NCBI GenBank assembly: GCA_964016885.1
Contig: OZ024744.1
Span: 90,830,001-90,894,000 of the forward strand
From: Eledone cirrhosa
Lineage: Eukaryota
Direction of reading: 5' to 3'
DNA length: 64,000 nucleotides
In this document: positions 9,739-57,900 of the stretch, one piece after another
How positions within the stretch are numbered: the first letter of the stretch is position 1
How the letters are laid out: each line of letters opens with the position of its first letter
The notes under the pieces: generated by a model
The model's database searches: none
Seen by the model: the letters and a program-made list of their open reading frames with translations, nothing else
Told to the model about the DNA's origin: nothing
Made by a program: the position numbers and the translations under genes

Positions 9739-9963
9739 GTGGAACAGAGAGAAGGGAGCACCCTCTCGTTGTGCTCCCGTGGAGAAGGGTCGCACATTTT
9801 TTTTCGGGGGTGTGTGTGACCCCAAAACGATCCCTCCCTATTGAGGACCTTCTTGTTATTATTTTGTTTGTTATATTTTTCTTACTCGATTTTTATGTAA
9901 ACTCCCCCCACTCATGTACATGTCCCTTTCTTTTGTGCCCTAGTGGCAAATAAACAGAAATTT

Positions 9964-10082
9964 GTCTGTCTTGCTCTCTCTCTCTCTCTCTGTCTGTCTG
10001 TTTGTCTCTCTGTCCATCTGTCGGTCCTGCTCTCTCTCTCTCTCTGTCTGTCTGTCTGTCTCTCTGTCCATCTGTCTGTCTT

Positions 10083-10119
<37 letters not shown>

Positions 10120-10522
10120 GTCTGTCTGTCTCTCTGTCCATCTGTCTGTCTTGCTCTCTCTCTCTCTCTGCCTGTCTGTCTGTCTCTCTGTCCATCTGTC
10201 TGTCTTGCTCTCTCTCTCTCTCTCTCTGCCTGTCTGTCTGTCTCTCTGTCCATCTGTCTGTCTTGCTCTCTCTCTCTCTCTCTCTGTCTGCCTGTCTGTC
10301 TGTCTCTCTGTCCATCTGTCTGTCTTGCTCTCTCTCTCTCTCTCTGCCTGTCTGTCTGTCTCTCTGTCTGTCTGTCTGCCTTGCTCTCTCTCTCTCTGCC
10401 TGTCTGTCTGTCTCTCTGTCCATCTGTCTGTCTCTCTCTGTCTCTCTCTGTCTGCCTGTCTGTCTCTCTGTCCATCTGTCTGTCTTGCTCTCTCTGTCTC
10501 TCTCTCTCTGCCTGCCTGTCTG

Positions 10523-10569
<47 letters not shown>

Positions 10570-10661
10570 GCCTGTCTGTCTCTCTGTCCATCTGTCTGTC
10601 TTGCTCTCTCTCTCTCTCTCTCTGCCTGTCTGTCTGTCCATCTGTCTGTCTGTCTGTCTTG

Positions 10662-10693
<32 letters not shown>

Positions 10694-11406
10694 GCCTGTC
10701 CATCTGTCTGTCTTGCTCTCTCTCTCTCTCTCTGCCTGCCTGTCTGTCTCTCTGTCCATCTGTCTGTCTTGCTCTCTCTCTCTCTCTCTCTGTTTGTCTG
10801 TCTGTCTGTCTCTCTGTCCATCTGTCTGTCTTGCTCTCTCTCTCTCTCTCTCTCTGTCTGTCTGTCTCTCTGTCCATATGTCTGTCTTGCTCTCTCTCTC
10901 TCTCTCTCTCTCTCTGTCTGTCTGTCTGTCTCTCTGTCCATCTGTCTGTCTTGCTCTCTCTCTCTCTCTGTTTGACTGTCTGTCTCTCTGTCCATCTGTC
11001 TGTCTGTCTTGCTCTCTCTCTCTCTCTCTGTCTGTCTGTCTGTCTCTCTGTCCATCTGTCTGTCTTGCTCTCTCTGTCTCTCTCTGCCTGTCTGTCTGTC
11101 TCTCTGTCCATCTGTCTGTCTTGCTCTCTCTCTCTCTCTCTGCCTGTCTGTCTGTCTCTCTGTCCATCTGTCTGTCTTGCTCTCTCTGTCTCTCTCTGTC
11201 TGTCTGTCTGTCTCTCGGTCCATCTGTCTGTCTTGCTCTCTCTGTCTCTCTCTGCCTGTCTGTCTGTCTCTCTGTCCATCTGTCTGTCTTGCTCTCTCTC
11301 TCTCTCTCTGTCTGTCTGTCTGTCTCTCTGTCCAACTGTCTGTCTTGCTCTCTCTCTCTTTCTCTCTCTGCCTGTCTGTCTGTCTCTCTGTCCATCTGTC
11401 TGTCTT

Positions 11407-11449
<43 letters not shown>

Positions 11450-12468
11450 GTCTGTCTGTCTCTCTGTCCATCTGTCTGTCTTGCTCTCTCTGTCTCTCTC
11501 TGCCTGTCTGTCTGTCTCTCTGTCCATCTGTCTGTCTTGCTCTCTCTCTCTCTCTCTGCCTGTCTGTCTGTCTCTCTGTCCATCTGTCTGTCTTGCTCTC
11601 TCTGTCTCTCTCTGTCTGTCTGTCTCTCGGTCCATCTGTCTGTCTTGCTCTCTCTGTCTCTCTCTGCCTGTCTGTCTGTCTCTCTGTCCATCTGTCTGTC
11701 TTGCTCTCTCTCTCTCTCTCTGTCTGTCTGTCTGTCTCTCTGTCCAACTGTCTGTCTTGCTCTCTCTCTCTGTCTCTCTCTGCCTGTCTGTCTGTCTCTC
11801 TGTCCATCTGTCTGTCTTGCTCTCTCTCTCTCTCTCTGCCTGTCTGTCTGTCTCTCTCTCTCTGTCTCTCTCTGCCTGTCTGTCTGTCTCTCTGTCCATC
11901 TGTCTGTCTTGCTCTCTCTGTCTCTCTCTGCCTGTCTGTCTGTCTCTCTGTCCATCTGTCTGTCTCTCTCTCTCTGTCTCTCTCTGCCTGTCTGTCTGTC
12001 TCTCTGTCCATCTGTCTGTCTTGCTCTCTCTCTCTCTCTCTGTCTGTCTGTCTCTCTGTCCATCTGTCTGTCTTGCTCTCTCTGTCTCTCTCTGCCTGTC
12101 TGTCTGTCTCTCTGTCCATCTGTCTGTCTTGCTCTCTCTCTCCCTCTCTGCCTGTCTGTCTGTCTCTCTGTCCATCTGTCTGTCTTGCTCTCTCTCTCCC
12201 TCTCTGCCTGTCTGTCTGTCTCTCTGTCCATCTGTCTGTCTTGCTCTCTCTGTCTCTCTCTGCCTGTCTGTCTGTCTCTCTGTCCATCTGTCTGTCTCTC
12301 TCTCTCTGTCTCTCTCTGCCTGTCTGTCTGTCTCTCTGTCCATCTGTCTGTCTTGCTCTCTCTCTCTCTCTGTCTGTCTGTCTGTCTGTCTCTCTGTCCA
12401 TCTGTCTGTCTTGCTCTCTCTCTCTCTCTCTCTCTGTCCATCTGTCTGTCTTGCTCTCTCTCTCTCTC

Positions 12469-12499
<31 letters not shown>

Positions 12500-12516
12500 G
12501 TCCATCTGTCTGTCTT

Positions 12517-12564
<48 letters not shown>

Positions 12565-12756
12565 TGTCTCTCTCTGCCTGTCTGTCTGTCTCTCTGTCTG
12601 TCTGTCTGTCTTGCTCTCTCTCTCTCTCTCTGCCTGTCTGTCTGTCTCTCTGTCCATCTGTCTGTCTCACTCTGTCTCTCTCTGTCTGCCTGTCTATCTC
12701 TCTGTCCATCTGTCTGTCTTGCTCTCTCTGTCTCTCTCTCTCTGCCTGCCTGTCTG

Positions 12757-12809
<53 letters not shown>

Positions 12810-12912
12810 GCCTGTCTGTCTCTCTGTCCATCTGTCTTGCTCTCTCTCTCTCTCTCTCTGCCTGTCTGTCTGTCCATCTGTCTGTCTGTCTGTCTTGCTC
12901 TCTCTCTCTCTC

Positions 12913-12947
<35 letters not shown>

Positions 12948-13018
12948 GTCCATCTGTCTGTCTTGCTCTCTCTCTCTCTCTGCCTGCCTGTCTGTCTCTC
13001 TGTCCATCTGTCTGTCTT

Positions 13019-13058
<40 letters not shown>

Positions 13059-13994
13059 CATCTGTCTGTCCTGCTCTCTCTCTCTCTCTCTCTCTGCCTG
13101 TCTGTCTGTCTCTCTGTCCATCTGTCTGTCTTGCTCTCTCTGTCTCTCTCTCTCTGTCTGTCTGTCTCTCTGTCCATCTGTCTGTCTCTCTCTCTCTCTG
13201 TCTCTCTCTGCCTGCCTGTCTGTCTCTCTGTCCATCTGTCTGTCTTGCTCTCTCACTCTCTCTCTCTCTCTGCCTGTCTGTCTGTCTCTCTGTCTGTCTG
13301 TCTGTCTCTCTCTCTCTGTCTCTCTCTGCCTGTCTGTCTATCTCTCTGTCCATCTGTCTGTCTTGCTCTCTCTCTCTCTCTCTGCCTGTCTGTCTGTCTC
13401 TCTGTCCATCTGTCTGTCTTGCTCTCTCTCTCTCTGCCTGTCTGTCTGTCTCTCTGTCCATCTGTCTGTCTTGCTCTCTCTCTCTCTCTCTGCCTGTCTG
13501 TCTGTCTGTCTTGCTCTCTCTCTCTCTCTCTCTGCCTGTCTGTCTGTCTCTCTGTCTGTCTGTCTGTCTTGCTCTCTCTCTCTCTCTGCCTGTCTGTCTG
13601 TCTCTCTGTCCATCTGTCTGTCTTGCTCTCTCTCTCTCTCTCTGCCTGTCTGTCTGTCTCTCTGTCTGTCTGTCTGTCTCCCTCTCTCTGTCTCTCTCTG
13701 CCTGTCTGTCTGTCTCTCTGTCCATCTGTCTGTCTTGCTCTCTCTGTCTCTCTCTGCCTGCCTGTCTGTCTCTCTGTCCATCTGTCTGTCTTGCTCTCTC
13801 TCTCTCTCTCTGCCTGTCTGTCTGTCTCTCTGTCCATCTGTCTGTCTTGCTCTCTCTCTCTCTCTGCCTGTCTGTCTGTCTCTCTGTCCATCTGTCTGTC
13901 TTGCTCTCTCTGTCTCTCTCTGTCTGCCTGTCTGTCTCTCTGTCCATCTGTCTGTCTTGCTCCCTCTGTCTCTCTCTCTCTGCCTGCCTGTCTG

Positions 13995-14043
<49 letters not shown>

Positions 14044-16137: not shown

Positions 16138-16210
16138 TATATATTTTATCTGATGAAAACGTACTTAAACACCATTGTACCTTTGAAATATGTATAATAA
16201 AATATATATT
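16138..16210 (+). ncRNA. Type I hammerhead ribozyme
   Basis: ATATTTTAT-CTGATGA-AAACGTAC...GTACCTTT-GAAA-TATGTAT-A-ATAAAATAT: stem I of about 12 bp, stem II, near-palindromic stem III. Confidence 0.75.
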
Positions 16211-21137: not shown

Positions 21138-21176
<39 letters not shown>

Positions 21177-21391
21177 GTTAAAAATGTACATCCACATATG
21201 TATACTGAAATACTAGTATGCATATGAATACACACACGTATACATATGTAGATGTACCGAGTTTTTCACTGGTCACTTTACTGTGAGTGTCCAGCTATTC
21301 TGTATGTAAACACACAGACAAACCGGTTTTTAGAGTCATACTGGTTTTTGAGGAAACACCTTTCCTCTATTCTCCAGAAAGCCAGGCAAGG

Positions 21392-21436
21392 AATATTGAA
21401 CTAGTTTCGATGTTGTTACATCTCATCAGCAATATT
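21392..21436 (-). ncRNA. Type I hammerhead ribozyme (R1 left arm)
   Basis: Minus strand AATATTG-CTGATGA-GATGT AACA ACATC-GAAA-CTAGT-T-CAATATT. Confidence 0.92.
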
Positions 21437-22012
21437 TACCTATCTTCCGGCCTCTCTAGAGAATCGTAAAAGCACATATCGTTATATGCTTTTTCTATGA
21501 AAATTAGTAGTGGGCAGACTAATTTGCATAGAGCGTGAGTACGTACCGGTTCAACGGAGACGATAAAAACAAATAACGAAACGAAATTAAATTTCGTTTC
21601 ATTTGTAACTCACTTTTGTATGACTGACGCTTAAACAATTAAGTTAAAAATCTACATCCACATATGTATACTGAAATACTAGTATGCATATGAATACACA
21701 CACGTATACATATGTAGATGTACCGAGTTTTTCACTGGTCACTTTGTGTGTGTATTCATATGCATACTAGTATTTCAGTATACATATGTGGATGTACATT
21801 TTTAACTTAATTGTTTAAGCGTCAGTCATACAAAAGTGAGTTACAAATGAAACGAAATTTAATTTCGTTTCGTTATTTGTTTTTATCGTCTCCGTTGAAC
21901 CGGTATGTACTCACGCTCTATGCAAATTAGTCTGCCCACTACTAATTTTCATAGAAAAAGCATATAACGATATGTGCTTTTACGATTCTCTAGAGAGGCC
22001 GGAAGATAGGTA

Positions 22013-22057
22013 AATATTGCTGATGAGATGTAACAACATCGAAACTAGTTCAATATT
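22013..22057 (+). ncRNA. Type I hammerhead ribozyme (R1 right arm)
   Basis: AATATTG-CTGATGA-GATGT AACA ACATC-GAAA-CTAGT-T-CAATATT; perfect core, ACTAGT palindromic stem III, GUU site. Confidence 0.92.
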
Positions 22058-22393
22058 CCTTGCCTGGCTTTCTGGAGAATAGAGGAAAGGTGTTTCCTCA
22101 AAAACCAGTATGACTCTAAAAACCGGTTTGTCTGTGTGTTTACATACAGAATAGCTGGACACTCACAGTAAAGTGACCAGTGAAAAACTCGGTACATCTA
22201 CATATGTATACGTGTGTGTATTCATATGCATACTAGTATTTCAGTATACATATGTGGATGTACATTTTTAACTTAATTGTTTAAGCGTCAGTCATACAAA
22301 AGTGAGTTACAAATGAAACGAAATTTAATTTCGTTTCGTTATTTGTTTTTATATATATATATATATTTGCAAGCAGGGAAAAGCGGACGTAAA

Positions 22394-28747: not shown

Positions 28748-31700
28748 GCTACACTACACTACATTGCACTACACTACAATACACTACACTACATTATACT
28801 ACACTACACTAAATTACTCTACATTACACTACATTACACCACATTGCACTACACTACACTGCACTACATTACACAACACTACACTACACACACGACACTA
28901 CACTACGCTACACTACACTACATTGCACTCCACTTCACTACATTACATTACACAACATTACACTACACTACACTACACTACATTACACTACACTACATTA
29001 CACTACACTACACTACACTAGATTACACTACACTGCGTTTCATTACATTACACTACATTACATTACACTACATTACACTACACTACACTACATTACGCGA
29101 TATTACTCTACACTACACTAAACTACATTACACTACACTACACTACACTACACTACACTACACTACATTACACTACACCACATTACACTACAATACATTA
29201 CACTACATTACATTACATTACACTACATTGCGTTACATTACATTACACTACACTACACTACATTACATTACACTACATTACACTACACTACACTACACTA
29301 CACTACACTACACTACATTACACTACACTACATTATATTACACAACATTACATTACACTTCACTACATTAGACTACATCACATTATATTACACTACATTA
29401 CATTACACTACATTACACTACATTACACTATATTACGCTACATTACACTACATTACACTACACTACATTACACTACATTACACTACATTACACCACATTA
29501 TACTACATTACACTACATTACATTACACCACACTACATTACACTACACTACACTACATTATACTACATTATACTACACTACACTATATTACACTACATTA
29601 CGTTACATTACATTACACTACACTACACTACATTACATTACACTACATTACACTACACTACACTACATTACACTACACTTCACTACATTACACTACATTA
29701 CACTACATTACATTATATTTCATTACATTACACTACATTACATTACACTACACTACACTACATTACACTACACTACATTATACTACATTATACTACACTA
29801 CACTATATTACACTACATTACGTTACATTATATTACACTACACTACACTACATTACATTACATTACATTACATTACACTACACTACATTACACTACACTT
29901 CACTACATTACACTACATTACATTACACTACATTACATTATATTTCATTACATTACACTACATTACATTACACTACACTACACTACATTACACTACACAA
30001 AATTACACTACACAAAATTACACTACACTACACTACAATACATTATATTACACTACACTACACTACACTACATTACACTACATTACTCTACATTAAATTA
30101 CGTTGCACTACATTACATTACACTACATTACACTACATTACATTACACTACACCACATTACACTACATTACATTACACTACACTACATTACATTACATTA
30201 CACTACATTATATTACACCACATTACACTACACTACATTACACGACATTACATTACACTACACTACACTACATTACACTACACTACACTACATTATACTA
30301 CATTATACTACACTACACTATATTACACTACATTACGTTACATTATATTATACTACATCTGAGTTCAAATCCCGCCGAGGTTGACTTTGCCTTTCATCCT
30401 TACGGGGTCGATAAAATAATCCTTACGGGGTCGATAAAATAAAGTACCAGTAATTGCTGGCCTTGTGCTTAAAGTAGAAACAATTATATTATACTACACT
30501 ACACTACATTACATTACACTACATTACGTTACATTATATTACACTACACTACACTTCACTACATTACACTACATTACATTACACTACATTACATTATATT
30601 TCATTACATTACACTACATTACATTACACTACACTACACTACATTACACTACACAAAATTACACTACACTACACTACAATACATTATATTACACTACACT
30701 ACACTACACTACACTACATTACACTACATTACTCTACATTAAATTACGTTGCACTACATTACATTACACTACATTACATTACACTACACCACATTACACT
30801 ACATTACATTACACTACACTACACTACACTACATTACACTACATTATATTACACCACATTACACTACACTACATTACACGACATTACATTACACCACATT
30901 ACACTACATTACACTACACTACACTACACGACATTAGACTACATTACACTACACTATATTACACTACATTACATTACAGTACACTACATTACACTACACT
31001 ATATTACACTACATTATATTACACCACATTACACTACACTACATTACACGACATTACATTACACCACATTACACTACATTTCACTACACTACACTACACG
31101 ACATTAGACTACATTACACTACACTATATTACACTACATTACATTACAGTACACTACATTACACTATACTACACTACATTACATTACATGACACTACATT
31201 ACACTACACTACATTACGTTACATTACACTTCACTACACTACATTACACTACACTACATTACACTACACTACACTACATTACACTACATTACATTACACT
31301 ACATTATATTACACTACACTACATTACACTACATTATATTACACTACACTACATTACACTACATTACATTACACTACACTACATTACACTTCACTACACT
31401 ACATTACACTACACTACATTACATTACACTACACTACATTACACTACATTACATTACACTACATTATATTACACTACACTGCATTACACTACATTACACT
31501 ACACTACACTACATTACACTACACTACAATACATTAAACTACATTACACTACACTACATTACACTACTCTACATTACACTACATTACACTACATTACATT
31601 ACATTACACTACACTACATTACACTACATTACACTATACTACACTACACTACATTATATTACATTGTAGTATACTACACTACACTACATTACACTACATT

Positions 31701-32972
31701 ACATTACACTACACTGCATTACACTACACTACATTATATTACACCACATTACACTACACTATATTACACTACATTACACTACACTACATTACACTACACT
31801 ATACTACACTACATTACATTACACTACATTACATTACACTACACTACATTACACTACACTACATTACACTACACTATACTACACTACACTACATTACACC
31901 ACATTACACCACATTACACTACACTACATTACACTACACCACACTACATTACACTGCATTAAATTTTATTACACTACATTACACTACACTACGTTACATT
32001 ACACTACACTACACTACATTACACTACACTACATTACACTACATTACATTACACTACACCACATTACACTACATTACACTACACTACACCACACTACATT
32101 ACACTACACTATACTACACTACACTATATTACACTACATTACACTACACTACATTACATTACACTACACTACACTACACTACACTACACTACACTACACT
32201 ATACTACACTACCCTATACTACACTACACTATACTACACTATACTACACTATACTACAATATATTACACTATACTACACTATACTACACTATACTACACT
32301 ACTCTATACTACACTCCACTATACTATACTACACTATACTACACTATATTACACTATACTACACTACACTATACTACACTATACTATACTACACTATACT
32401 TCACTATATTACATTATACTACACCACACTACACTATACTACACTATACTACACTATACTACACTATACTACACTACACTACACTACACTATATTACACT
32501 ATATTACACTACACTACACTATACTACACTCTACTATACTATACTACACTATACTACACTATACTATACTACACTATACTACACTACACTATACTACACC
32601 ATACTATACTACACTATACTTCACTACACTATACTACACTACACTACACTACACTATACTACACTACACTATATTACACTATACTACACTACACTACACT
32701 ACACTACACTACACTACACTATATTTCACTATACTACATTATACTACACTATACTACACTATACTACACTATACTATACTACACCATACTATACTACACT
32801 ATACTACACTACACTACACTATATTACACTATATTACACTATACTACACTACACTACACTACACTATACTACACTACACTATACTACACTATACTACACT
32901 ACACTATACTACACTACACTATATTACACTATACTACACTACACTATACTACACTACACTATACTATACTAA
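28748..32972 (+). repeat. 4.2-kb pentanucleotide array (ACACT/ACATT grading to ATACT) with a 5'-truncated family A SINE at 30358-30487
   Basis: Direct reading; the source of the HYTTL ORFs. Confidence 0.98.
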
Positions 32973-33369
32973 CATTAATTCTAGGCGTTGTTGGTTTTCT
33001 TAATTATTTGTTTTTCATATTGCTTTTTCTTATAGGTGTGTGTGTGTGTGGTTTTTTTTGTGTGTGTGTTTATGTGCATGTGTGCGTGTGTGATATTTAC
33101 ATGCACTAGGTCAACTCTGATCGATCAGACTTATGATTAAGAAGGGCTGTCTAGTTGTGACCGTCCCTACTTCATTTACAGATAGTGTTCTCCCATTTTT
33201 AAGAGGGAGATTTGGCAGCTATTTCTAGCAGGTTGAGAGACCATGTGTAAACTTCCATAATGTATGTAGCAATTAAGTTTAATTTTTATTATATCTTATG
33301 GGAATATCTTTTTTATCATCGCCATCACAACCTTTCCTACCCCACCACTGCCATTAAGTCCACTTACCA

Positions 33370-34890
33370 TCACCACCAGTACTACACCACCACCACCACA
33401 ACCAGCACTATTAACCATCACCACCATCAGCAACACCAATGCCAACCAATACCACCACCAGAATCACCAACCACCACCACCACCATCATCAACCACCCCA
33501 TCATCACTACCACCCCCATCATCACTACCACCACCATCACCACAACTACAACCACCATACCCACCACCACCACTAACTCCAGTGTCACCTCCACATCACC
33601 ACCACTACCAGCAGCACTATCAACCATCACCACCACCATCAGCAACACCAATACCAACCACCACCACCATCATTACCATCTCCAACCCCCTCCACAACCA
33701 CCACCACCACCACCACAACCACCACAACCACCACAACCACCATCCCCACCACAAACACCAACAACAACAACAACAACAACACAACCATCACCACCATTAC
33801 CAACAACCCCCCAATACCTCACCATCACCAATTACCTCCATCACCACCGTCACCGCCACCCACCACAACTACCTCCACCACCACAAACAACAACAACAAC
33901 ACAACCACCACAAACAACAACAACAACACAACCACCACCACAACCATTACCAACCACCACCACCACAACTACCACCATCACTTCCACCCTCCACAGTGAC
34001 CTCCACCACCACAATCACCAACCACCCCCAATACCACGCCACCACCACCACCACCACTACCACCATCACCACCATTACCAACACCACCACCACCACCACT
34101 ACCACCATCATCACCATTACCAACACCACCACCACCACCACCACCACCACCACCAACACCACCACCACCACCACCACTACCACCACCACCACCACCATCA
34201 TCACCACCACCACCACTACCACCACCACCTTCATCACCACCACCACCACTACCACCACCACCACCACTACCACCATCACCGCCACTACCACCACCACCAC
34301 CACCACCACCATCACCACCACTCCACCACCACCACCACCATCATCACCACCACCATCACCACCACCACCATCACCACCACCACTACCGCCACTACCACCA
34401 CCACCACCACCACCACCATCACCACCACTCCACCACTACCACCACCACCACCACTACCGCCACTACCACCACCACCACCACCACCACCACCACCATCACC
34501 ACCACTCCACCACCACCACCACCACCACCACCACCACCACCACCACCACCACCACCACCATCATCACCACCACCACCACTACCACGACCACCACCACGAC
34601 CACCACCACCACCACCACCATCACCACCACCACCACTACCACCACCACCACCACTACCACCATCACCGCCACTACCACCACCACCACCACCACCACCACC
34701 ACCACTCCACCACCACCACCACCACCACCACCACCATCACCACCACCACTACCACCACCACCACCACCAATCCACCACTACCATCACCACCACTACCGCC
34801 ACTACCACCACCACCACCACCACCACCACCACTACCGCCACTACCACCACCACCACCACCACCATCACCACCACTCCACCACTACCACCA
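33370..34890 (+). repeat. (CAC)n-based trinucleotide array
   Basis: Direct reading. Confidence 0.97.
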
Positions 34891-35219
34891 ATTTGTGGTC
34901 TGTTGCATCTGTGGATCTTGTACTGGAACTTTTCACTCCGTCATTTACAATGACCATCATTAACTGCTATGAAGTAAAGGAATGTTATGTTATCGGTGAC
35001 TTTTATCTGACTACAAGGATAGAGAAGCATGGAAATATGTAGCCCAGAAACATGAATATATTCATCGCCTGTATATTCACATATATTTTACAATAAGTCT
35101 CCAATTTACGAACGAGTTCGTTAGTTGATTTGTTTGTAAGTTGATCGTCTGACACAGCACGTACCAGTAAGCCTATATATATATATATTACATCGATATT
35201 GCATGTTTCCATATGAGTG

Positions 35220-48215: not shown

Positions 48216-48288
48216 ATACTACTCAGCTTAACATTGCCTCAACTCAGGTTTTTACTATATACAAAACTATATCTGACAGGAAGGTATA

Positions 48289-48329
48289 CGATGCTGACGA
48301 TAGCTAATAAGCTTGAAACTAGTTCATTG
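48289..48329 (+). ncRNA. Type I hammerhead ribozyme (R2 copy 1)
   Basis: CGATG-CTGACGA-TAGCT AATA AGCTT-GAAA-CTAGT-T-CATTG; the first pair of stem II is a T-T mismatch. Confidence 0.78.
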
Positions 48330-48710
48330 TTCCTTTGTCAGTGTTGAACAAAAGGGTGGTTGCCGAACACTGTATGGCTTAATTCGAGCTGTTTGTTTAC
48401 AAACAAACCGAACATTATAATAAATGTTCGGTGAATCCAAACGTACATATATATATATGTGTGTATGTATATATATATACATACTACTGTACATCTGTAT
48501 TCATATATGTATGTACGTATACATACTTATATTTAAGTAACAGCCGTACTAAGAGTGAGAAATTAAATTTCGTTTCATTTTTTCCATATATCGTTTTCGG
48601 TGCGCCCGGCTGATTAACTCACTCGATATGCAAATTAGGCTGCTCAGTCATTAATATGCATAAGGAAAGTATATACTTTGAGACGTTCAATCATCTGGCA
48701 GGAAGGTATA

Positions 48711-48751
48711 CGATGCTGACGATAGCTAATAAGCTTGAAACTAGTACAGCG
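48711..48751 (+). ncRNA. Type I hammerhead ribozyme (R2 copy 2)
   Basis: CGATG-CTGACGA-TAGCT AATA AGCTT-GAAA-CTAGT-A-CAGCG. Confidence 0.75.
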
Positions 48752-49787
48752 TTCCTTTATCAGTGTTGAACAAATGAGCAACGATGGTTGCTAGACACTG
48801 TACGGCTTAATTCGGGATGTTTGTTTACAAACAAACCGAACATTATAATAAATGTTCGGTGAATCCATACGTACATATATATATATGTACATGTATGTAT
48901 ATATATATACATACTACTGTACGTCTGTATACATATATGTATGTACGTGTACATACTTATATTTAAGTATCAGCCGTACTAAGAGTGAGAAATGAAATTT
49001 CATTTCTTTCTTTTCGTTTTCTCCTAGTTTCATATATGTGATCAATAATGGTTCAGTTATTTTTTATTAACTATATTAGTTGAGAGCTTTTTGTATTGAG
49101 GTGGTGAAAATCACTTTATTTTCACACACTGTAAACAACTGCCAAAACTTTGGCCAGTATGACCTTCCTCTTTTGAGATAGGTCATCTGACAACACAGGC
49201 AGGGTTACTACAATGGCGAGAATGCTTCTATTGTCAGATTGAACTTTGGAACAAAGCCTGCCGGTTCCATCGTGTACACATGTATTGCATGGACATTATG
49301 CAACTTGTTATATAACTTCCAGGAGTTCCAGAAACCTATCTTATATTTTTATTGATTATATCGATTTTAATCAATATGAGATGGTCCAGGTACATTTTGC
49401 ACTTTTTTGTATTTATCATTGTTGGTTGTGATATATGTATGGCCAGTACCAAAGGTAATTTTTCTTGGTGTCACACTTTTTAACTGTTGTGTTTACTCTT
49501 GACAGTAATGTATTAACATACTGCTCTATTGAGTGCTTTGTGATTACCTCAGACAACTCCATTAGTACTTGCTATATGGCAGCTACAACTTCAATTCATA
49601 CCTAATATAATATTATGAGGACGTTTTTCGTATTCGTCTTATTCGGGAAACCTCTGGTAATGAGGTAATTATATTGTATTGTTTATTATACATTAAATTT
49701 TGCTCTGGTACTTACATAGAGCACTCTTCACTCCTATGACTTCTTCATTTTTCAACAGAAACTTCAATACTTATATATATATATATA

Positions 49788-54904: not shown

Positions 54905-57900
54905 GCAAGGACTCCTCCTCTTTATTTCGGCCGCGGATGGCCAACATAACCCCATCTCCCTCACCCCTCCCTGCGCCCCACCGTTCCCACCCACCAAACA
55001 CAATCCAAAACTTCAGAGTTGTTACCATGAATGTAGGCACCTTAAAAGGTCGCTTTAACGAGGTTGTAGAAATGCTTAAACGTAAGGAGGTTGGTGTTTG
55101 CTGTATCCAAGAGACCAGGTGGAGGGGTGGGTCTGCTAGATTCATTGTGGGTAAAAAACGATGCTATAAGCTTTTCTGGGTGGGAAATGACAATGGGCTG
55201 GGTGGAGTAGGAATCATGCTAGCAGAAAAATAGGCAGATAAGATAATAGACGTAAATAGAGTGAACGACAGAATAATTAAAATAAGACTTGTCCTAAATA
55301 GAACTACTGTGACAATAATATCTGTGTACACACCCCAATCCGGACTGCCTGGCGTTATAAAAGACAGATTCTATGAGTCGTTAATGCTCACTACCTCCCA
55401 AATAACCAACAGTGACTACATAATTATTGCTGCCGACCTAAATGGTCACGTTGGACAACATTGTGACAGCTATGACGGAATCCATGAAGGCTATGGGTTT
55501 GGTACTAGAAATGAGGAAGGCTCCAGAATGCTGGAATTCTGTGACGCAAATAACCTAACTAACTGTAACAGTAACTTCAAAAAACGAGACAATCACTTGA
55601 TCACCTATAGATCAGGGGAACACGCCAGTCAGATAGATTATATCCTTACCAGAAGACGTGATAGAGTGTCTGTTGTAAACACTAAATCCCTCCCCCATGA
55701 AGAATGCACCTCCCAACATACTCATAGTTAGCGACCTCATAGTCAGGACAAGACATACTCGACAATAGAGGAGGACTATTCTCAGGAGAAAAATTTGGAA
55801 GCTAAAGGACCTCACAGCCAGTAATAAATTTAAAAGCATATTACTTGATGCTTTTGACAGTAAGGAAGAGCAATTAGAGTTGTACAATATAGAGGAACAG
55901 TGGGAATTCCTGAAAGCTAACCTGCTGAAGGCGACAGATGAAGTCTGTGGCTGCAGCAGACCTATAGGCAGGAGGAGAGTAACGTAGTGGTGGAACAGTA
56001 AGGTGGAGGAGTCAATCAAGGCCAAAAAGCAGGCTTGGAAAGTATGGCGGGATGGGGGAAGTAGAGAAGACTATCAAGTGGCCAGGAGGGAAACTAGGAG
56101 ACAAGTGTACTTCGCAAGAAGGGAAGCAGAGGAAAGAAAGCTCAAGCATGTACTACAACACGAGGACCAAAAACGTGAGATGTTCAGGATTGCTAGGCAA
56201 TGTGTCAAGGAAAACCGTGATATTGTCGGGGAGAAGTGTGTCCTTAATGATGATGGTGTACTTGCCATCACTGACGCTGATAAGAAGGTAGCTTGGAAGT
56301 GTCACTACGAAAGGCTACTAAATAAATGAGGAGAATAAATGGGAGAAAGACAGTCTCCCCCACATAGATCCAATAGAGGGACCAGCAGTGCAAGTTGAAG
56401 GTAGTATAATAAGTAAGGAAATCAAAGATATGAAGACTGGCAAGGCGGCTGGGGCTTTGGAAATAGTTGCTGAGATGCTGAAAGAATCTGGAACGGTGGG
56501 ACACACTCTGGTCACCCGGATAGTAAACCAAGTCATACAGAATGGGGTCGTACCAAAGGACTGGCGTAGCAGCATCATCATTAACTGCTACAAGGGTAAA
56601 GGAGATGCCCTAGATAGGGGAAACTATAGAGGCATTAAATTAATTGACCAGGTCATGAAGGTCACAGAAAAAGTAATAGCGCAACTAATCAGCGAGTGAA
56701 TTGATCTGGATGAAATGCAGTTCGGGTTTGTGTCAGGTAAAAGTACCACAGACGCTCTTTTCATTGTACAACTACAGGAGAAGTACCAAGCTAAAAGTAA
56801 ACCCCTATACTTAGCTTTTGTTGACTTGGAGAAAGCCTTTGACAGAGTCCCACGCCCCATTATCTGGTGGTCTCTCAGAAAACTAGGTGTAGATGAATGG
56901 CTTGTGAGCGCTGTACAAGCCATGTATAAAGAAACAGTCAGCAAGGTTAGAATTAAGAACGAATTTAGTGAAGAGTTTAGCGTAAAAGTTGGTGTTCATC
57001 AGGGCTCCGTCCTTAGCCCCCTGCTATTTATTATTGCCCTTCAAGCTATAACAGAGGAGTTCAAGACCGGCTGCCCATGGGAACTCCTATACGCTGATGA
57101 TCTAACGCTCATAGCTGAATCAATGGCTGAACTAGAGAAGAAATTCCAAACATGGAAGCATGGCCTAGAATCAAAAGGCCTTAAAATTAACCTGTCTAAG
57201 ACTAAAGTTCTAGTATGTAGGAAGGAAAATAGGGCACTTGTCCCATCTGGGAAATGGCCATACTCAGTGTGTAGGAAAGGAGTAGGCAGAAACTCCATTT
57301 TGTGCCCCAAATGCAAAGTATGGGTGCATAAAAGATGTAGTGGGATCACAGGTAAGCTAACTCAGAATATAGATTTTATATGTGGCCGGTGCTCAGGTGC
57401 AATAAGTAGCAGCAAGTGCCCACAGAATACTAGCTCTTACAACTGCGCAGAGGGCTCTATAGAAATAGTGGACAGCTTCCGTTACCTGGGTGACAAAATC
57501 AGCAGTGGGGGAGGGTGCTCTGAAAGTACAGTAGCTAGAGTCAGAACGGGATGGAAAAAGTTCGGAGAGCTAAACCACTATTGGCCGCTAAAGGGTTCTC
57601 ACTAAAAATGAAAGGCAGGCTGTATGATGTCTGCATACGAACAGCAATGTTACATGGCAGTGAGACATGGGCATTGTGTGCAGAGGATATACACAGACTG
57701 GAGAGGAACGAAGCTTGCATGCTCCGTTGGATGTGTAATAGTAATATACGTGAACGGCAAAGCATAAATGAACTAAGCAAGAAATTAGGAATAAGAGGGA
57801 TCAGATGCTGTTTACTCGAGAGAAGACTACGTTGGTATGGTCACGTGATGCGCATGAAATACGACAGCTCTATAAAAAAGTGCAGGGCGGTCAAAATAGA

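Follow-up and report, generated by a model that had tools for sequence, protein, structure and literature searches.

A block made up of an octamer, a YCA core and a TATA element was found inside the units of two hammerhead retrozyme families, R1 and R2, in the window (the whole stretch of 64,000 nucleotides of Eledone cirrhosa DNA that was analyzed). We consider that this block probably works as a host snRNA-type promoter, with Pol II as its probable reader. The original prediction, made from the letters of the window, had proposed a portable promoter within the unit, and the comparison with host genes speaks for that proposal: the motif corresponds to the proximal element of the host U6 class, and the geometry to that of host U3, consistent with a candidate promoter carried by each unit.

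R1 and R2 are mutually homologous families with Penelope-type insertions. Their units (466 and 422 bp) are AT-rich, too short to encode a reverse transcriptase (RT), and contain both T5 and T6 tracts. All positions given by the original prediction were correct: the octamer ATGCAAATTAG lies at 21920 and 48628, and is followed after 43 nt by TATAA (21963) in R1 and after 42 nt by TATATA (48670) in R2. Type I hammerheads with an ACTAGT stem III stand at 22020 and 48716, and another at 48294. The CCGG/ACTCAC stretches upstream and the AATTTCGTTTC blocks at 21861 and 48566 were likewise present. A second copy of the R1 module, on the minus strand, had escaped that prediction. The hammerheads contain the core, stems I and II, and a 2-bp palindromic stem III; an Rfam search of the window gave no hits at the gathering score, hammerheads included. 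The features are listed in Table 1, and m-numbers below count from the A of the octamer.

Table 1 Features of the R1 and R2 insertions in the window.
Feature	Position	Strand	Description
R1 plus arm	21746..22352	+	1.3 units of the 466-bp monomer; outer end fixed in TA repeat
R1 inverted arm	21171..21745	-	1.2 units; includes an octamer of its own at 21529-21522, a TATA, and a hammerhead from 21429
R1 octamer 12-mer TATGCAAATTAG	21919..21930	+	POU-type site; equals proximal element of host U6/MRP/tRNA-Sec genes
R1 YCA(S) core CCAC, offset 16	21936..21939	+	Position-equivalent to TCAG (host U1/U2/U4/U5) and TCAT (U3)
R1 octamer pairing partner in RNA, also a degenerate reverse octamer	21942..21952	+	Pairing/fold analysis
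R1 TATA element CATATAA (TATAA at 21963)	21961..21967	+	Unchanged in 36/36 distinct R1 modules
R1 predicted transcription start	21991..21994	+	Predicted from host snRNA geometry; best pyrimidine-purine step at A 21992
R1 type I hammerhead	22010..22060	+	CTGATGA core at 22020; cleavage predicted after 22050
R1 tail	22278..22352	+	Between the two preferred outer ends; holds GTGAGT and the GAAATTTAATTTC hairpin; second copy at 21812-21886
R2 insertion	48271..49013	+	1.7 units of the 422-bp monomer
R2 first hammerhead	48284..48335	+	Core at 48294; no promoter upstream of the first hammerhead in this copy
R2 octamer 12-mer TATGCAAATTAG	48627..48638	+	Sequence match
R2 TCAG core, offset 16	48644..48647	+	Sequence match
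R2 octamer pairing partner in RNA	48651..48661	+	Pairing/fold analysis
R2 TATA element	48670..48676	+	TATATA at 48670
R2 predicted transcription start	48700..48702	+	Predicted, A at 48700; weak junction excess at the equivalent place
R2 second hammerhead	48706..48757	+	Core at 48716; predicted cut after 48746

Elsewhere in the window, hammerhead-like motifs lacking the octamer module were seen at 16150 (+), 16378 (-), 16713 (-), 24902 (+), and 63799 (-). Long simple-sequence arrays with strong strand skew occupy 9845-14000 and 28800-35000. Between 36000 and 62200, there are several long inverted repeat pairs (86-97% identity), which are probably LINE copies, and an RT-like motif near 57090.

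The arrangement shared by R1 and R2 is real and exceeds chance: 31,649 sites in the genome have the exact octamer 83-108 nt ahead of a hammerhead core, against 23 for a reversed-pattern control. This count is dominated by R1 and R2 copies and measures abundance, not independent origins. The accompanying statement that the rest of the sequence has diverged needs correction: 199 of 368 alignment columns are identical along the whole aligned stretch, with 68% identity over 228 nt. Since the families are homologous over the entire alignment, the common spacing was inherited and is not convergent. Matches to the ACTAGT-type hammerhead pattern number 40,632 in the 3.0-Gb genome (reversed control, 21). 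The search with R1 listed 202 matches in tandem and head-to-head arrays, the 150 shown being at 97-100%; that with R2 gave 3,496 candidates, 40 of which were scored.

An octamer-TATA-hammerhead pattern built without R1 and R2 yielded 1,675 matches and none in its control. Fifty loci of non-R1/R2 pattern, combined with earlier loci, gave 23 module clusters, found by a pattern demanding the octamer, TATA, and CTGANGA; GAAA follows stem II in 17. Cluster F23 is a probable chance match and was left out, leaving 22 clusters for the hairpin and core/TATA-spacing comparisons; judged by eye, these represent about seven related, diverged lineages and not independent origins. Two features lay at positions that the pattern did not demand. 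T directly precedes the octamer in 21 of the 23 clusters, and CA occupies positions 18-19 in 17 of the 22, where the maximum among 5,000 shuffles was 9 with relatedness ignored. In clusters F07 and F17, YCAG lies at 21-22 and TATA at 47-48, core and TATA being displaced together by 5-6 nt with the core-TATA distance still at 26 nt. Most module loci outside R1 and R2 are single, old copies.

CCGG and ACTCAC lie upstream of the octamer in R1 and R2 as described; they are family-specific and were not retained in other lineages. Conservation across hammerhead families, proposed as a check, extends to the roughly seven lineages, but the module is missing from 11 of 15 clusters of other hammerhead types in flanking DNA (one is a 5'-truncated R2-like pair). 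One module lineage recurs every 50-60 kb within a very large tandem repeat (G000:C1:143343558-143791155). On the minus strand at G000:C1:11881957, an octamer-TAATCAG-TATATA block precedes a long hairpin, and no hammerhead is visible in 700 nt; it may be a decayed copy or a different RNA using the same promoter. Octamer-hammerhead combinations in metagenomes (at least 108 stretches) were set aside as chance or incidental, the matches listed having scattered spacing and neither a shared TAG/GAG nor a shared TATA.

Host loci were taken for U6, U2, U1, RNase P, MRP, U6atac, U5, U4, tRNA-Sec, U3, and U12, and 27 promoters were scored; the polymerase class of each gene is assumed from general animal knowledge. 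The 12-mer TATGCAAAT(T/G)AG proved to be the proximal element of the host U6, U6atac, RNase MRP, and tRNA-Sec genes. Written as TATG(C/G)WAATKAG and allowing 0-1 mismatch, it stands at -76 to -79 in all seven Pol III type-3 promoter types scored (three U6 types, the best U6atac, MRP, and two tRNA-Sec), with 46-48 nt between the 12-mer and TATA and CCT between them in six of the seven. With up to two mismatches, the background was 31 of 258,942 positions. Across loci, the proximal 12-mer is present in 12 of 20 for U6 and absent from eight, and absent from four of five for U6atac; the loci without it are probably interrupted copies or pseudogenes. In a U6 array (G000:C19), the stretch from the upstream block to TATA is occupied in six of 16 copies by a different, repeat-like sequence that seems to have been inserted into the promoter.

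Host U3 promoters (four of four scored, from six) contain the 12-mer with 2-3 mismatches at -73/-74, with TCA 17 nt and TATA 42 nt beyond it. Those of U1, U2, U4, U5, and U12 have YCAG or YCAGT at -55 to -58, TATA mostly near -30, and no proximal octamer. A TATA-like box near -30, AATTAA near -90, and a distal TTACCTCCCT in several classes were observed in the host Pol II snRNA genes, the first of these differing from the TATA-less vertebrate snRNA pattern. The single RNase P RNA gene (G000:C24:12936134) has an upstream region of the U1/U2 type (TTACCTCCCT twice, AATCAGTG, and TATA) and, unlike MRP, no octamer, and may be transcribed by Pol II.

When the module was measured against these rules, R1 and R2 showed zero mismatches to the host Pol III type-3 12-mer, YCA at offset 16, and TATA 41-43 nt after the octamer, in the geometry of host U3, with a core-TATA distance of about 26 nt that equals that of host U1, U2, U4, and U5. 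In its octamer the module thus belongs to the U6 class, and in its core, 26-nt distance, and geometry as a whole to the U1/U2/U3 class; none of the 27 host promoters scored combines an exact U6-type octamer with a Pol II-type core and spacing. The R1 core is likely part of a PSE. The base after the retrozyme core usually differs from that of the host (mostly YCAGC, and CCACT in R1, versus TCAGT), and neither the AATTAA near -90 nor the distal TTACCTCCCT found upstream of U1, U2, U3, and U12 was present at those places in the R1 and R2 units. That the module is an snRNA-class promoter of one polymerase or the other we hold with good confidence. The predicted +1 positions fall at the base of the hammerhead's extended stem I.

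The U3 geometry and the core-TATA distance of U1, U2, U4, and U5 make Pol II the likelier enzyme. The original prediction had favored Pol II from the internal T-runs; the spacer, 5 nt shorter than in the Pol III genes, and the core sequence now point the same way as the T5 and T6 tracts within the unit. The human U6 promoter is inactivated as a Pol III promoter when its spacer is altered by 5 bp (PMC7949045), and in insects small PSE differences track the polymerase, a few PSE bases of the PSEA system separating Pol II from Pol III classes, as appears to be the case here (PMC1761439).

Alternatively, Pol III, or both enzymes as at human H1, could read the block as a type-3 promoter resembling that of U6, with leaky T5/T6 terminators giving some multimers; we regard this as unlikely but not negligible. 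The exact 12-mer does mark host Pol III type-3 genes, F07 and F17 have a U6-like spacing of 47-48 nt, and one class of outer insertion ends falls just after a T5/T6 tract. Precedents are the human H1 gene (RPPH1), which has a compact octamer-PSE-TATA arrangement like that of the module and dual activity (PMC7949045), and a schistosome hammerhead satellite with a Pol III promoter (PMC2220036). However, the spacing in most clusters falls about 5 nt short of that in any of the host Pol III genes scored, and YCA stands where six of seven host Pol III promoters have CCT; R1 and R2 depart from the type-3 rule in both spacing and core, and F07 and F17 agree with it in spacing only. In addition, a unit-length RNA would have to cross T5/T6, and half of the outer ends are away from any T-run.

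The octamer might also have been retained because of RNA structure or circle packaging, or be an inert relic, with transcription arising from flanking read-through. The hairpins described in the original prediction are genuine for the octamer in both families; the R2 TATA hairpin is weak, and the pairing does not generalize, since 9-10 of 11 possible pairs form in clusters F01-F04 and F17, whereas the other 17 of 22 clusters form 6-8, like shuffles. Folding of the R1 circle pairs ACTCAC with GTGAGT, a pair that is missing from the R2 fold. Within-family variation was scored after anchoring distinct modules (36 of R1 and 79 of R2) by their hammerhead and flanks. It was 0.020 for the octamer, 0.005 for its partner, and 0.056-0.067 for the flanks in R1, and 0.045, 0.052, and 0.090-0.100, respectively, in R2. 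The octamer is therefore not better conserved than its partner within R1 and R2, the outcome named beforehand as pointing to RNA structure, and the changes commonly seen in the octamer preserve or restore its pairing, from which it follows that RNA structure also constrains the R1 and R2 octamer. The common stem variants are A-to-G changes at paired positions and may be ordinary transitions or RNA editing before reverse transcription. The lack of a junction peak in R1 fits this alternative too. Across lineages, however, the same test came out the other way, 17 of the 22 clusters retaining the octamer without the partner, and a purely structural role leaves the identity to host promoter elements and the fixed core-TATA distance unexplained. 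We thus find the structural or relic explanation improbable; the simplest reading is that the octamer is a DNA element which in R1 and R2 is additionally folded into RNA.

Histone H2B genes have promoters with an octamer, a CCAAT-like box, and TATA. An ordinary mRNA-type Pol II promoter of that kind, not involving SNAPc, is very improbable here: a few clusters read CAGCCAATG or GGCCAATCAG and the pLTR of a coding Penelope-like element (PLE) has CCAAT and TATA, but CCAAT is absent from R1, R2, and F03, and what is conserved is YCA, placed where snRNA promoters have their core, in the host U3 geometry.

The insertions themselves point to mobilization by PLEs. The R1 outer ends fell at m359-364 or m431-436 in 47 of 54 cases, with TA-rich flanks in 43; the corresponding figures for R2 were 86 of 97 at m324-334 or m375-389, with TA-rich flanks in 71. 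R1 and R2 share with PLEs their partial tandems, inverted copies, TA targets, and a tail, which is delimited here by two alternative ends; for PLEs the inverted copies are described as 5' ones, the targets as TA repeats, and the tail as lying at one end. R1 and R2 differ in apparently lacking an ORF and in having a tail of 56-74 nt instead of 30-40 (PMC8557442).

Inner 5' junctions were scored at 79 distinct loci, drawn from 158 R1 matches and from 1,643 and 624 R2 matches, and they were scattered. Only one of 30 in R1 lies at m72-74; in R2, nine of the 31 within m59-84 do, against about 3.6 expected, many of these being inversion junctions. The R2 boundary at 48271 (m66) does correspond to 48693, 23 nt after the start of TATA, as predicted, but it is nothing special among truncated copies, and because the junctions are scattered, it does not count as evidence for a start site.

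Elements with GIY-YIG and RT domains are abundant in the genome, and a PLE carries its hammerhead and start site in its pLTR (PMC8557442). Among the 3' regions of 14 long-ORF copies, none had R1 or R2 ends, save for one separate R1 insertion. The one coding PLE family (RT and GIY-YIG) with a clear 3' pLTR has a minimal hammerhead there, preceded at about 100 nt by GTGACG, CCAAT boxes, and TATA; it differs from R1 and R2 in combining CCAAT and TATA without the octamer. An octamer-type module was sought in coding PLEs and rejected, none being present in any clear pLTR at the 50 GIY-YIG loci covered; the octamers seen belonged to nearby retrozyme-type copies. ORFs beside the non-R1/R2 modules (83 of 283 frames scanned by Pfam) contained no GIY-YIG, and the RT and PHD matches there look like unrelated LINE insertions.

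An intron reading of the block (GTGAG donor, CTCAC branch, and TAG acceptor) was also discarded: no spliced-junction copy was found in either family, which is weak evidence against it because PLEs keep introns, and GAG occurs in 16 of the 23 clusters. Contigs from four sequencing runs, the type of which is unrecorded, cover R1, and one closes on itself at 466 nt, as tandem DNA also would.

From the motif, its spacing, the host matches, the tandem and inverted arrays, and the fixed outer ends, we infer the following cycle. A POU protein would bind the octamer, and SNAPc and TBP the core and TATA, and transcription would begin about 73 nt after the octamer, just before the hammerhead. Where two hammerheads lie downstream of a promoter, transcription would carry on past the T5/T6 tracts and the following promoter, and the RNA would then be cleaved into unit lengths and circularized. 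Priming by a Penelope-type RT/endonuclease would take place at two fixed AT-rich sites that lie upstream of the promoter in the circle; the enzyme would then go round, copying the circle into TA repeats and stopping at random points. Including the promoter would require reverse transcription through nearly a full turn; an insertion of that length would recover a promoter of the upstream type, one that would be lost in ordinary SINE-style copying, and each new tandem copy would thereby likely bring its own. A source copy would have one promoter followed by two hammerheads. This order is seen in many genomic arrays and in none of the three window copies, which would be dead ends under the model since a single hammerhead lies downstream of each promoter. 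The model would account for source copies being only arrays of about two units or more.

Tandem hammerhead units of the R1/R2 kind are known as non-LTR retrozymes (PMC7229834) and have been argued to derive from PLE pLTRs (bioRxiv 10.64898/2026.07.22.740005). Metazoan examples share with R1 and R2 the type I hammerhead, short AT-rich tandem units, and dispersed arrays; they have no ORF, and circular RNA and rolling-circle copying by PLEs have been proposed for them (PMC7229834; bioRxiv 10.64898/2026.07.22.740005). Animal retrozymes were strongly expressed in every tissue tested (PMC7229834). In the main texts of these two papers no endogenous retrozyme promoter is described, the word "promoter" occurring twice in the first, for T7 both times, and not in the second; the text available for PMC6155905 and PMC6309819 contains nothing further on promoters. 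A literature search, which took in few subscription journals, found no published promoter for invertebrate retrozymes and no mollusc snRNA promoter.

That hammerhead repeats can carry their own promoter was already known from two satellites. The promoter of newt satellite 2 reportedly contains an octamer and a PSE. Like R1 and R2, this satellite is a tandem hammerhead repeat (about 330 bp); it is reported to have an internal snRNA-type promoter read by Pol II (PMC2220036, citing Coats, Zhang and Epstein 1994). The schistosome Sm-alpha hammerhead satellite also has its own promoter, but an internal Pol III one in place of an upstream snRNA-type block (PMC2220036). Newt satellite 2 is a vertebrate system, whereas R1 and R2 follow a lineage-specific grammar, in which TATA is present and the octamer stands about 73 nt from the predicted start, shared by about seven lineages. 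What is new is the occurrence in an invertebrate genome at such a scale, the match to a lineage-specific host grammar, and the union of a U6-type octamer with Pol II-type spacing.

As a more speculative possibility, a U6-type Pol III promoter may have been captured and then converted to Pol II, the spacer losing half a helical turn and the core turning from CCT into CAG, which would have allowed reading through the T-tracts and round the unit. Rolling-circle copying would then have made a portable upstream snRNA promoter of it and seeded POU/SNAPc-type promoters, some 30,000 in number. The lineages spaced at 42 nt and those at 47-48 nt would then form a natural series for polymerase choice. 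For elements given no promoter in the two retrozyme papers, the block provides a base-level promoter candidate with a predicted start and polymerase, and it suggests that the solution found in newt satellite 2 also exists in an invertebrate.
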